DNA of 64,000 nucleotides from an uncultured Acidobacteriota bacterium (GCA_963781755.1 CAWAGZ010000008.1:16153-80152); one strand, 5' to 3'; positions 22,660-56,226 are shown, counted from the first letter of the stretch. The notes: generated by a model from the letters alone, not told the origin. A program made the numbers and translations.

Positions 22660-24130
22660 ATGGAGACTCCGACCGCGGTACTCGAGCTCGGCCCTCTGCG
22701 CTGCCTGTCCCTGAATCTGCGACGGCTCGAGAGGTGGCTTTCGGCGCGCGGCGCTGCGCGGCGTCCTCGCACTGTCGGGCGGCGCGGTCCGCGTCGAGGG
22801 CGCGGACCGGCTCGCGGCGGCGCCGGAGCCGTCGATCTTCGCCCTGACCCACCACAACGTCTGGGAGGCGCTGCTCGCGCCCGCGGCGTTGATGGCGGCG
22901 CGCCGCGGCCGCCCGGTCCGGTTCCTCATCGACTGGATGTTCGTCGACCTGCCGTGGACTGGGTGGCTCCTGCGTCGCTTCGCGCCGATACCGGTCTACG
23001 CCAAGCCCGCACGCTTCCGGCTACGCGAGCGCCATCGCCGCGAGCGGCGGCGCGATTCGGCGTTCGACGCCGCGGTGGCGGCGCTCGGCGAGGGTCAGGA
23101 CGTCGGCCTCTATCCGGAGGGACGGCGCAATCCGGATCCCTGGTTGCTCGGCGCGCCGCGCCGCGGCCTGGCGCGCCTGGCGTTGCGCGCGGGCGCGCCG
23201 GTCGTGCCGATCGGCATCGACTTTCCCGCCCGCGACCGGCTCCAGCGCACCCCCCGAGCCGGCCGTCTCGTGCTGCGCGTCGGCGAGCCGCTTTCGTTCG
23301 GGGCGGAGCACGCGGCCTGGCGGGACGCGCCTTCGGGAGGAGAGCGGCGCCGGGTCGAGAAGCGGCTGGGGCCCGAGATCGCCGACCGGGTCCACGAAGA
23401 GCTGGCGCGCCTCGCGCGCAAGGTCTACGTCCGCAGAAGCCGGCCGGAGAAGGAGGCCACGGTGGCGGGGGCGGCGATCGAGAGCGGGCTGTCGGTGGCG
23501 AAGGTCCTGGATCCGGCGATGCGCGAGGCCGCGCTGGGCGTGATCGCGGAGGTCTACGGCGAGGAGAAGCGCTGGCTGGCGGACGCGGCGCCGGAGATCC
23601 CGGTCGATCCGACGGCGGACTCCAGAGTCAGCTGGTTCCTCGCCCGTTCGGCGGGCGAGCCGGTGGGCGTCGTGCGCCTGTCCTACGATCCGCCGCTCGA
23701 GCTGCCGCGGGACTTCGAAGTCGAGATCGACTCCGGGATCGATCTCGAGCGGCTGGCCGCGGGCGGCCGGTTCGTCGAGGTCGGCAGGCTCATGATCCGC
23801 TCGAGCTGGCGCTCGCGTCCGGCGGCCGTCCTGGCGCTGATGCGGTCGGCGCTCGCCGAGGTCGTCGGGCGGGGCTACACCCACCTGTTCACGGCGGTGT
23901 TCGAGGACGACCCGCATTCGCCCTATCGATTTCACACCCGTCAATTGGGTTTCGAGCGCGTCGGCACCCATCGCCACGGCGAGTTGGAATGCGAGAGCCG
24001 CAGGATCCTGCTCGTGCTCGACCTGGCGCGCGCCTGGCGCCGTCTGAGGGCGCGCCGGGCGGCAGTGGTCGGTCACCTGGCGCGCGGTCTCGAGGAGCGA
24101 CTCGAAGGGCTCGCGGTCGCTTCATCGTGA
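22660..24130 (+). CDS. bifunctional acyltransferase (N-terminal PlsC/LPLAT-like O-acyltransferase with HHNVWE box, C-terminal GNAT/OlsB-like N-acyltransferase; OlsF-like). N-terminus unresolved (apparent frameshift or non-canonical start).
   Basis: ORF track calls 22889..24130 (TTG start). The LPLAT domain (LRGVLALSGGAVRVEGADRLAAAPEPSIFALTHHNVWEALL, then EGRRNPD, PVVPIGI) continues upstream in the same frame to ~22715 with no ATG/GTG/TTG. An ATG at 22660 opens a different frame (METPTAVLELGPLRCLSLNLRRLERWLS) that would join with a 1-nt indel near 22740. C-terminal domain carries an OlsB-like VGVVRLSY box. Confidence 0.65.
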
Positions 24131-24206
24131 CGCCGCCGACGCGCCGAGTTGACGCCCGAGGCGCAAGCTCTGGACGCGGCGGAGAAGCGTCCGGAGGCCG
24201 GCGACC

Positions 24207-24743
24207 ATGAACCTCGACACCAGAACCCTCGGACCCCGGCTGCAGGAGCTGGAGGTCGGGCTCTGCCAGCGCGCCGTCCGCATCCAGGAGCGCCGCGCGG
24301 TCCTGGCTTTCTTCCGCACGGTCTCGCGCCTCGGCGACGGCGGGCTCTGGATCGCGTTGGCGGGTTTGCTGGCGGTCGTCGGCGGCGAGCGGACGCTGGC
24401 GACGGTGGCGCGGATGGCGGCGGTCGGCCTGGCTTCGACGGTCGCGAGCAAGCTGCTCAAGAGGTGGGCGTGCCGGCCGCGGCCGTGCACCGTCGCGGCG
24501 GGCATTGCGGCCGGCGCGGCGCCGCTCGATCCCTGGAGCTTCCCCTCGGGCCACACCCTCCACGCGGTGGCCTTCACCGCGGTCGTGGGCGCCGAGCTGC
24601 CGACGCTCGCCCTGCTGCTGTTGCCGTTCACCCTCGCCGTCGCCGCGTCGCGCGTCGTCCTCGGCCTGCACTATCCGAGCGACGTCGCGGCGGGCGCCGC
24701 GATCGGACTGGCTCTCGCCGGCGCGGTCCTGGCTTTCTCGTGA
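24207..24743 (+). CDS. PAP2 superfamily phosphatase (phosphatidic-acid / lipid-phosphate phosphatase type)
   Basis: All three PAP2 motifs: KLLKRWACRPRP (KxxxxxxRP), PSGHT, SRVVLGLHYPSDV (SRxxxxxHxxxD). Membrane protein, 178 aa. Confidence 0.85.
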   Translation: MNLDTRTLGPRLQELEVGLCQRAVRIQERRAVLAFFRTVSRLGDGGLWIALAGLLAVVGGERTLATVARMAAVGLASTVASKLLKRWACRPRPCTVAAGIAAGAAPLDPWSFPSGHTLHAVAFTAVVGAELPTLALLLLPFTLAVAASRVVLGLHYPSDVAAGAAIGLALAGAVLAFS

Positions 24744-53323: not shown

Positions 53324-53327
53324 ACCC

Positions 53328-56226
53328 TTGAGCGAGTCCTATTTCCGGCCGCTGGACACCTTCGCGCGCCGGCACCTCGGGTCGTCTCCCGCGGAGATCG
53401 ACGAGATGCTGGCCGTCGTCGGCTGCGGCTCGATGGAGCAGCTGATGGCCGAGACGATCCCGGCCGCGATCCGCCGGGAGCGCCCGGTCGCCATCGAAAC
53501 CTCCGTCGCCGGCGGATCCGGCGGCGAGGCCGGGACGACGGCTCATCTGCGCGCGATGGCGGCGCGCAACCGCCGTCTTCGCTCCTACCTCGGGATCGGC
53601 TACCACGGCACGGTGATGCCGGGCGTCGTGCAGCGCAACGTGCTGGAGAACCCCGGCTGGTACACGCAGTACACGCCCTACCAGGCGGAGATCTCGCAGG
53701 GCCGGCTGGAGGCGCTGCTGGCGTTCCAGACGATGGTCTCCGAGCTGACCGGGCTGCCGATCGCCAACGCCTCTCTGCTCGACGAGGCCACGGCGGCCGC
53801 CGAGGCGATGCACATGGCGGCCGCGGTCCACCCCAAGCTCGAGTCGATCGACCGGCCGGTCTTCTTCGTCGCCCACGACTGCCATCCGCAGACGATCGCG
53901 GTCGTGCGCACGCGCGCCGCCGCCGCCGGAATCGACGTCCACGTCGGCGACCCGTTCCTGGCCGACCTCGACAGCGGCAGGATCCTGGGGATCCTCGTCC
54001 AGTACCCCGCGACCGACGGCCGGGTGCGCGACTACGCCCCGCTGGCGGCGCGCGCCAGGGCGGCGCACGCGCTGCTGATCGCGGCGTGCGATCCACTCGC
54101 CCTGGCCCTGCTGCGGCCGCCGGGAGAGTTCGGCGCCGACGTCGCGATCGGCTCGACCCAGCGCTTCGGGTTGCCGATGGGCTGGGGCGGTCCCCACGCC
54201 GCGTTCCTGGCCGCCCGCGAGGAATACAAGCGGCAGGTTCCGGGCCGCATCATCGGCGTCTCGCGCGACGCTGCGGGCCGCACCGCGTACCGGATGTCGC
54301 TGCAGACGCGCGAGCAGCACATCCGGCGCGAGAAGGCGACTTCGAACATCTGCACCGCCCAGGTGCTGCCTGCGATCCTGGCGGCGATGTACGCGGTCTA
54401 CCACGGTCCGGAAGGACTCGTGGCCATCGCCCGCCGGGTCCACGCTCTGACCGCGACCCTGGCGCACGGACTGCGCCGCCTCGGACACCGGCTGCCCGAG
54501 GAGCCCTACTTCGACACCCTGGCGGTCGAGATCACGAGCGGGACCGCGGACGAGGTCCTCGCCCGCGCGCTCGAGCGCGGGATCAACCTGCGGCGGCTGG
54601 ACGACCGCGTCGTCGGCGTCGCGCTCGACGAGACGGTCGGCCGCGGGGACCTGATGGACCTGCTGGCCGTCTTCGGCGGCGGAGATCTCGACCCCGACGA
54701 GCTCGCCCGGACCGCCGACGCCTCGATTCCGGCCCCCTTCGCCCGCGTCTCGCCCGTGCTCGAGCACCCGGTGTTCCACCGGTATCACACCGAGCACGAG
54801 ATGCTGCGGTTCCTGCGTCGTCTCGAGGCGCGCGACCTCTCGCTCGCCCACTCCATGATTCCGCTCGGCTCGTGCACGATGAAGTTGAACGCGACGGCAG
54901 AGATGGTCCCGTTGTCGTGGCCCGAGCTGGCGGACCTGCACCCCTTCGCCCCGCCGGACCAGGCCACCGGGTACCACGAGCTGATCCGCGACCTCGAGCG
55001 CTGGCTGACCGGGATCACCGGCCTGGCGGCGGTGTCGCTGCAACCCAACGCCGGCTCCCAGGGCGAGTTCACCGGATTGCTGGTGATCCGGGCCTGGCAC
55101 GCGTCGCGCGGCGATGGCCGGAGGAACGTCTGCCTGATTCCGGTCTCCGCGCACGGAACCAACCCGGCCTCGGCGGTCATGGCCGGCCTCAAGGTCGTCG
55201 TGGTGGCGTGCGACGAGCACGGCAACATCGATCGTCTCCGACCTGCGCGCCAAGGCCGAGGCCCACGCCTCCGAGCTGGCGGCGCTGATGGTGACCTACC
55301 CCTCGACCCACGGCGTGTTCGAGGAGGAGATCCGCGAGATCTGCGAAGTCGTCCACCGCTTCGGCGGCCAGGTCTACCTCGACGGCGCCAACATGAACGC
55401 CCAGGTGGGTCTGTGCCGGCCCGGCGACTATGGCGCCGACGTCTGCCACCTGAATCTGCACAAGACGTTCTGCATTCCGCACGGCGGCGGCGGTCCCGGC
55501 ATGGGGCCGATCGCGGTCGCGCGGCATCTCGCGCCGTTCCTCCCCGGTCACCCGCTCGTCGCCTGCGGCGGCGACCAGGCGATCGGGCCGGTGGCCGCGG
55601 CGCCCTACGGCAGTCCGCTGATCCTGGCCATCCCCTGGATGTACATCGCGATGATGGGCAGCGAGGGCCTCGAGGCGGCGACCGAGCTGGCGATCCTCAA
55701 CGCGAACTACGTCGCGGCCCGGCTGCGGTCGGACTACCCGGTGCTCTACCGCGGCGCCCGCGGCCGTGTCGCCCACGAGTTCATCGTCGACCTGCGTCCG
55801 TTCAAGGCCACGGCCGGCGTCGAGGCGGAAGACGTGGCCAAGCGCCTGATGGACTACGGCTTCCACGCTCCGACGATGTCCTTCCCGGTACCCGGTACGC
55901 TGATGATCGAGCCGACCGAGAGCGAGTCGAAGCGCGAGCTGGACAGATTCTGCGACGCGATGATCGCGATCCGCGCGGAGATCCGCGAGATCGAGGAGGG
56001 ACGGGCGGACCGCAAGGACAATCCGCTCAAGCATGCACCGCACACCGCGGAGGCGATCGCGGCGGACGACTGGAGCCATCCCTACGGCAGGGAGCAGGCG
56101 GCGTTCCCGCTGCCCTGGGTCCGGGACGGCAAGTTCTGGCCCGCGGTCGCGCGCATCGACAACGTCTTCGGCGACCGCAACCTGATCTGCCTCTGCCCGC
56201 CGGTCGAGGAGTACGCGACGCGCTAG
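53328..56226 (+). CDS. gcvP: glycine dehydrogenase (decarboxylating) GcvP, single-chain form, interrupted by an apparent +1 frameshift near 55225-55240
   Basis: N-terminal two-thirds in ORF 53328.. (frame 0) up to …[13 protein letters not shown]. The remainder (…[28 protein letters not shown]… to …VEEYATR) is in the frame of ORF 55288..56226. Join implies one extra nucleotide in atcgatCgtctccgac. Confidence 0.85.

Follow-up and report, generated by a model that had tools for sequence, protein, structure and literature searches.

Do single-base frameshifts in four conserved genes of one metagenomic contig belong to the genome of the organism, or were they introduced when its sequence was assembled? 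The question is raised by a stretch of 64,000 nucleotides (nt) from an uncultured Acidobacteriota bacterium (GCA_963781755.1, contig CAWAGZ010000008.1, positions 16153 to 80152), the whole of which is referred to here as the window. The genes affected encode an OlsF-like bifunctional acyltransferase, a VWA-domain protein, the tRNA 2-thiouridine(34) synthase MnmA, and the glycine dehydrogenase GcvP. Comparison with related contigs indicated that the four frameshifts are very probably consensus errors of the deposited assembly, each consisting of one spurious inserted base, rather than a property of the organism's genome.

Since the GC content of the window is about 72% and spurious open reading frames (ORFs) open in all six frames across its 64 kb, coding frames were assigned from the GC content of third codon positions (GC3 frame plot) together with three-frame translation. 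The named protein matches of the window were mostly metagenome-assembled genomes (MAGs) of Thermoanaerobaculia (Acidobacteriota). Related DNA was gathered by looking up exact proteins, by homology searches, and by scanning JGI contigs once for a pattern. The exact look-ups of the window's own gcvT, response regulator, PhoU, and P0121 proteins gave no match. Twelve loci were retrieved, 10 of which are related contigs from five other assemblies, with DNA identities to the window between 91 and 99.6%. These are listed below with the locus numbers by which they are told apart.

ENA ERZ25039539 contig_19398, 166 kb: L001, L004, and L012, about 96 to 98% identical to the window.
ENA ERZ25039533 contig_18705, 3.87 Mb: L002, L006, and L011, about 96 to 97.5% identical.
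ENA ERZ25039495 contig_104918, 6 kb: L007, 99.5 to 99.6% identical.
JGI 3300082225, two contigs: L005 and L008, 91 to 94% identical.
Logan contig, 1.1 kb: L003, 98.9% identical.

A three-way alignment covered about 55 kb of the window (413 to 18,290; 22,600 to 38,705; 39,830 to 43,400; and 45,900 to 63,300), with additional pairwise checks of 18.3 to 22.5 kb. One extra nucleotide was found at each of four sites, 22733 to 22735, 32923, 38696, and 55232, all four events being 1-nt insertions. In the GC3 plot and the three-frame translations, the coding frame changes on the same strand at three of these sites (the GC3 switches lie at about 32.9 kb on the minus strand and about 55.2 kb on the plus strand), and a stop codon is lost at the fourth, in mnmA. 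Multiple alignments showed that every insertion is private to the window, being missing from all retrieved relatives that cover its site. Deletion of a single base from each gene gave proteins of 489, 600, 369, and 965 amino acids (aa), exactly the lengths of the orthologs (P0169, P0172, P0175/P0176, and the GcvP of L001, respectively). Each broken gene carries one lesion, with no second lesion, no in-frame stop, and no decay of the GC3 signal. Beyond the four sites, the three-way alignment contained no other window-private frame-breaking indel inside a gene. The genes and their insertions are as follows.

22660 to 24130, plus strand: gene for an OlsF-like bifunctional acyltransferase, with a PF01553 acyltransferase domain followed by a PF21926 FeeM-type N-acyltransferase domain; 489 aa after removal of one base.
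22733 to 22735, plus strand: +1 shift of the OlsF-like gene through a private 1-nt insertion, either G or T within AGGT.
31942 to 33745, minus strand: gene for a VWA-domain protein, the shorter tandem paralog of an 845-aa gene at 33803 to 36340; 600 aa when repaired.
32923, minus strand: private 1-nt insertion, C on the plus strand and G on the coding strand (GAG-G-ACG), missing from L004, L005, and L006.
37595 to 38705, plus strand: mnmA; 369 aa when repaired, with a start ATG overlapping (ATGA) the stop codon of the cysteine desulfurase gene that precedes it.
38696, plus strand: private insertion of a single C that puts the TGA out of frame, 7 nt ahead of the mnmA stop.
38702 to 39457, plus strand: gene whose product has a TonB_C domain and, N-terminally, a signal peptide and lipobox-like sequence; its normal start is the GTG of a GTGA overlap.
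53328 to 56226, plus strand: gcvP (glycine dehydrogenase, P protein), following gcvT and gcvH; 965 aa when repaired.
55232, plus strand: +1 shift of gcvP through a private insertion of one T (GA-T-CGTC), the extra base being missing from L001 and L002.

A preliminary description of the window had placed single +1 indels in the OlsF-like gene, the VWA paralog, and gcvP, and had listed the tail of mnmA as possibly hit as well. Alignment to the relatives confirmed one extra base in each of the first three and turned the suspicion about mnmA into a definite insertion, with positions that had been correct to within about 5 nt. The comparison with orthologous loci of related genomes, which had been proposed as a check, showed the insertions missing and the orthologs intact at all four sites.

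In the OlsF-like gene, the frame of the ATG at 22660 (METPTAVLELGPLRCLSLNLRRLE..., also written METPTAVLELGPLRCLSLNL...) switches by +1 at 22733 to 22735 into ...GFRRAALRGVLALSGGAVRVEG...THHNVWE..., and the +1 frame, which holds the acyltransferase domain, has no canonical start before 22889. The window reads GAGAGGTGGCTTT at this site; the 99.6% identical L007 reads GAAAGTGGCTTT, encoding LESGF, and L006 reads GAAGGGGGTTTC, encoding LEGGF. The insertion is likewise missing from L004, which carries its own private deletion 6 nt from the site. Thirteen OlsF-like orthologs (55 to 98% identity) align from residue 1 and conserve the sequence M..LxLxPxRxLxLxLPxLxGxxRRxxLR, which confirms the N-terminus, and a THHNxWE motif is nearly invariant in their N-terminal region. 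The intact ortholog on the 3.87-Mb contig (P0169) has 489 aa; the public call for the window's own contig (P0121) is truncated to 412 aa, starts at M78, and is devoid of the THHNxWE motif. OlsF is a bifunctional ornithine-lipid synthase in which an N-terminal PlsC-type O-acyltransferase with an HX4D/E motif is fused to a C-terminal OlsB/FeeM-type N-acyltransferase. The PF01553 plus PF21926 architecture was present in the precomputed domains of all OlsF-like orthologs, and no NCBIfam model reached its cutoff on the repaired protein. The term OlsF-like is used here for this predicted architecture only and carries no claim of ornithine-lipid synthesis.

At 32923 in the VWA paralog, the coding strand of the window reads GAG-G-ACG-CTC (GCGT-C-CTCG on the plus strand), and the three relatives read GAG ACG CTC, encoding E-T-L. 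The translation runs through ...AVAVPEGE and resumes as (T)LDRVEFRVGGELRATLF... in the +1 frame. The preliminary description was right to infer a single additional base here, and the residues it gave at the junction (PEGEDA|LDRVEF) were off by one or two, the relatives having PEGE-T-LDRVEF. Intact orthologs are found on the 3.87-Mb contig (P0172, 600 aa) and in JGI (P0001, 598 aa), and the repaired protein matched TIGR03436 (acidobacterial VWFA-related protein) over residues 339 to 599 at 181.4 bits, the cutoff being 81.25. In the public call for the window's contig (P0171), only a fragment of 275 aa from the C-terminal end remains. The tandem paralogs of 845 and 600 aa, both of the TIGR03436 family, occupy 31942 to 36340 and share a C-terminal "LDRVEF...VWA" module; this tandem arrangement, with maf next to it, is kept in all relatives.

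For gcvP, the window has ATCGA-T-CGTC at 55232, and both L001 and L002 have ATCGACGTC, which reads NID|VSDL across the junction, exactly where the frame had previously been proposed to break (NID|...). The repaired GcvP matched TIGR00461 (aminomethyl-transferring glycine dehydrogenase) in one stretch over positions 1 to 939 of 939, with 1458 bits against a cutoff of 859.2, and an intact 965-aa ortholog is encoded in L001. When GTDB genomes were scanned for the gcvP junction in both forms (inserted base present or absent), nothing matched. The scan of JGI metagenome contigs gave two matches, both without the insertion, one in a distant gcvP (77% identity) and the other in an unrelated gene.

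The mnmA gene ends in the window with ACG GGG C AGG CTG TGA (ACGGGG-C-AGGCTGTGA). The sequence is ACGGGGAGGCTGTGA in L004 and L006 and ACGGCAAGGCTGTGA in L008, all three being free of the C at 38696, and MnmA of the relatives ends at a TGA that overlaps the GTG of the next gene (GTGA). This extra C is the sole gap in a 2.3-kb alignment of the window with L008. The repaired MnmA matched NF001138 at 367.5 bits (cutoff, 284; profile positions 3 to 345 of 345) and TIGR00420 at 308.3 bits (cutoff, 237), and 369-aa orthologs are encoded on the 166-kb ENA contig and on one JGI contig. As a separate observation, the TonB_C gene at 38702 to 39457 occurs in two very different haplotypes. The window resembles L008 there (94% identity, no gaps), and L004 and L006 differ from it by many indels and substitutions that begin exactly at the mnmA stop. 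This split may mark a recombination boundary or a diversifying surface protein.

Substitutions were then polarised by the two ENA relatives, and window-private codon changes downstream of each shift were counted in the repaired frame for three of the genes.

gcvP: 8 synonymous, 1 non-synonymous.
VWA paralog: 14 synonymous, 8 non-synonymous.
OlsF-like gene: 13 synonymous, 6 non-synonymous.

Together, the three genes have 35 synonymous versus 15 non-synonymous changes in the repaired frame, and 7 versus 46 in the unrepaired frame. Thus, the lineage of the window evolved under purifying selection in the repaired frame, and any real inactivation of these genes would have to be extremely recent. 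The relaxed selection expected of a pseudogene was not seen, and the GC3 periodicity is intact.

The related assemblies carry lesions of the same kind at other places. Over the approximately 55 kb compared, genes of the 166-kb contig are hit by 25 private indels that break the frame, and those of the 3.87-Mb contig by 6; L007 has six in its 6 kb. Gene calls for VWA, Maf, OlsF-like, PHO4, Ppx, histidine kinase, PhoU, DUF1800, gcvP, and PPK are broken in the relatives, differently in each. We reasoned that these lesions are artefacts of the data type, because strains of about 98% identity cannot each have half of their genes broken in a different manner under strong purifying selection. Gene-internal indels shared between strains come in multiples of three, as do nearly all the others that are not isolated 1-nt events (3, 6, 9, or 15 nt), and all genes are intact on the two JGI contigs (L005 and L008). 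A window-private 9-nt in-frame insertion at 28135 to 28143, near the 3' end of ppk, which resembles a tandem duplication (GCGCCCGCG...), is an example of a genuine in-frame indel, in contrast to the 1-nt events.

The isolated 1-nt indels are not placed at random with respect to strain differences: 18 of 42 private events lie within 2 nt of a site at which the other two strains differ, for which the background is 8.3% (binomial P = 1.7e-9). In several cases, both alleles stand side by side in one assembly. At 31822 the window has C and L006 has G, and L004 has CG; alleles C and G at 36095 appear as GC in L004, alleles A and G at 51633 as GA in L001, and alleles T and C at 62624 as TC in L001. 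Two of the four insertions in the window fit this pattern. The strain-variable position at 22733 to 22735 reads AGT in L007 and GGG in L004 and L006, and the window has both G and T, so that the base inserted at 22735 is the allele of a relative. At 38696, where the alleles are GGG and GCA, the inserted C is the L008 allele, and this position coincides exactly with the split of the downstream gene into two very divergent haplotypes. Most of the 1-nt events, including two of the four in the window, fall outside homopolymers. A model restricted to homopolymers or specific to high GC therefore fits poorly, and the enrichment at strain-variable positions suggests a mixed-strain consensus problem rather than homopolymer miscalling.

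These observations bear on how the errors would have arisen. The contig probably derives from long reads, sequenced from a community in which several strains of the species co-exist; we infer long reads because the relatives include a single metagenome contig of 3.87 Mb. Where coverage was low, or where reads of different strains piled up, the consensus step would keep an extra base. A substitution between co-existing strains would thereby be rendered as an insertion, as appears to have happened in those cases of the related assemblies in which the consensus retains both alleles of a single-base difference next to each other. For the window's own four errors, both the sequencing platform and the mixed-strain origin are inferred from these comparisons.

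Systematic assembly or consensus error had also been the preferred explanation of the preliminary description. It is supported by the restriction of the insertions to the window, by relatives that are intact at these sites and carry similar lesions elsewhere, by the signature of selection, and by the full-length matches of the repaired proteins. The type of error suggested there, long-read indels in extreme-GC sequence, did not fit well, and neither did homopolymer errors, given that two of the four insertions lie outside any homopolymer and that the indels of related assemblies favour strain-variable positions. Three points weigh against consensus error or its proposed cause. The near-identical relative (99.6%) covers the OlsF-like site only, the other three sites being compared with relatives of 94 to 98% identity. 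The insertions at 32923 and 55232 are not at positions that vary among the few relatives, and the inserted base would have to be an unobserved allele (at 55232, GAT/GAC, both Asp). Finally, the mixed-strain mechanism was demonstrated mainly on the 166-kb contig. On the reading of consensus error, all four real genes would be intact: the OlsF-like acyltransferase with 489 aa, the VWA protein with 600 aa, MnmA with 369 aa and its end at the GTGA overlap, and GcvP with 965 aa.

The alternative that survives best, although we consider it unlikely, is that the insertions are real and very recent mutations of this strain or population (nascent pseudogenes, a hypermutator, or relaxed selection), or minority variants that won the consensus. 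The bases are present in the deposited sequence and are reflected in public gene calls, and at the three sites where the nearest comparison is 94 to 98% identical, a mutation younger than that divergence would look alike. Nevertheless, this explanation needs four independent single lesions in genes that evolved under purifying selection (35:15), none of them followed by a second lesion, an in-frame stop, or GC3 decay. It is also at odds with the 99.6% identical L007, which is free of the OlsF-like insertion, and with the number of lesions elsewhere in the related assemblies (on the 166-kb contig, 25 in about 55 kb), too many for all of them to be real. Moreover, gcvP and mnmA are conserved housekeeping genes that are intact at the window's sites in all relatives. 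The strong form of the idea, according to which the strain recently lost GcvP, the VWA protein, and the OlsF-like acyltransferase and acquired an MnmA fused to the TonB_C protein, for instance in an insertion-biased mutator lineage, is in our judgement very improbable; if it were true, the abundant private indels of the sister assemblies would be partly biological as well.

For mnmA alone, one might consider that MnmA and the TonB_C protein encoded downstream are naturally fused. In the window, mnmA without its stop runs in frame into the signal-peptide and lipobox-like stretch and then into TonB_C, giving an ORF of 618 to 620 aa in which Pfam TonB_C spans residues 528 to 608; the fused 620-aa call is present in public databases as P0177, and the 3.87-Mb relative (L006) has a 619-aa call that likewise spans tRNA_Me_trans to TonB_C. 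These fusions stem from distinct private indels, however: the +C at 38696 in the window, and in L006 a +1 at 38663 and a -1 at 38703, where mismatches are dense. In two other relatives, MnmA has 369 aa and stops at the GTGA overlap, and a separate gene of 251 or 282 aa comes next, the TonB_C gene of L008 (JGI) being called separately with 251 aa. The supposed linker is a signal-peptide and lipobox-like segment (RRRPELPLLLLAWVLACA), which makes no sense inside a cytoplasmic enzyme, and we regard a true fusion as hardly credible.

Programmed recoding, whether by prfB-type +1 ribosomal frameshifting or by slippage during transcription, would still yield full-length proteins from these genes, but it deserves next to no credence. 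In its favour, the sign is +1 in every one of the four events, and coding continues fully in the frames downstream. Against it, no shift is conserved, and orthologs of 55 to 99.6% identity are single uninterrupted ORFs. No in-frame stop lies at or near the junctions, no slippery or hungry-codon context is obvious there, and the unshifted frames remain open over hundreds of codons (ORFs at 22660 to 24210, 31307 to 33745, 36350 to 39457, and 53328 to 56600). The local contexts (GAGAGGTGG, GAGGACGCT, GGGGCAGG, and ATCGATCGT) contain no homopolymer runs for transcriptional slippage.

Several further candidates were considered in the window and set aside. A frame change at about 19.1 to 19.2 kb was rejected as an extra frameshift, as two adjacent full-length short-chain dehydrogenase genes lie there. 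Apparent deletions at 16965 and 17011 in PHO4 fall in a divergent stretch with a net difference of 0 or 3 nt, and the PHO4 of the window reads through with conserved motifs. A putative deletion at 17755 proved to be an extra base in both relatives instead, the DUF47 C-terminus of the window being canonical. At that position, L011 and L012 both carry the extra base, in differing local sequence, and their conserved DUF47/PhoU_div C-terminus is destroyed, the window's being intact. That the error recurs at one site in both assemblies is a hint of systematic miscalling, possibly related to modification. No split gene was found among 20 further ORFs of the window, the domains of which are complete by Pfam coverage. 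Six more window-private 1-nt indels, at 3746, 6093, 10190, 10379, 11163, and 49779, are all intergenic; two are in G or C runs, one directly follows a stop codon, and one is beside a ribosome-binding site. They may be real or further consensus errors.

Elsewhere in the window, a phosphate and polyphosphate neighbourhood at 6266 to 18314 comprises pstS-C-A-B, phoU, a porin gene, a PAS/HAMP histidine kinase gene, ppx, and the gene for a PHO4 (PitA-type) transporter with its PhoU_div partner, and a second block at 25994 to 30441 holds ppk and genes for a CHAD protein, a histidine phosphatase, and an OmpR-type response regulator. The stretch at 43507 to 45862 (about 2.3 kb), which carries a 702-aa Ser/Thr protein kinase ORF (43790 to 45898), is missing from both ENA relatives, where about 300 nt stand in its place; by this comparison it is a strain-specific insertion or deletion.

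The result is of practical rather than biological value, and no new biology is claimed. Gene boundaries in this contig need repair, as the earlier warning against trusting its ORF boundaries had rightly held. The public calls P0121, P0171, and P0177, recorded from one contig of 244,715 bp in NCBI and ENA, are already damaged, so that the errors have spread to public protein collections, and gcvP must have been split there as well. Users of this MAG would be misled in metabolic reconstruction (e.g., on the presence of the glycine cleavage system), in pseudogene counts, and in the detection of domain fusions. Much heavier damage is seen in the sibling assemblies of the ENA series, where broken positions reach about one per 2 kb. 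The concentration of indels at strain-variable positions would be a useful diagnostic for long-read MAGs of mixed-strain communities.

Three known systems invite comparison. As in the genuine pseudogenes of degrading genomes, such as those of recently host-restricted bacteria, single frameshifts interrupt conserved genes here. Such pseudogenes, however, gain further lesions and show relaxed constraint, whereas the genes of the window have one lesion each and a synonymous excess, and their lesions are unshared with close relatives. In prfB (release factor 2), the shift is conserved across orthologs and involves a slippery codon beside an in-frame stop and an upstream Shine-Dalgarno-like stimulator. 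The window's genes resemble it in that a +1 frame change is needed for the full-length protein, but their sites are unconserved even in relatives of 98 to 99.6% identity and have no in-frame stop nearby.

The closest parallel is provided by the consensus-indel artefacts of long-read (Nanopore or PacBio) data. Consensus indels in long-read data are known to frameshift gene calls, the more so where a metagenome bin has less than about 40x coverage (Sereika et al. 2022, PMC9262707), and frameshifted gene calls from residual long-read consensus indels have also been described with proovframe (preprint, 10.1101/2021.08.23.457338). As in those artefacts, isolated 1-nt indels split or truncate conserved genes, differ between assemblies of one organism, and vanish in better-supported assemblies, and they can be recognised by the continuation of the homologous protein in an adjacent frame. 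The difference lies in where the indels fall: the classical description stresses homopolymers, whereas the events described here are mostly outside them and, in the related assemblies, are enriched at positions that vary between strains.

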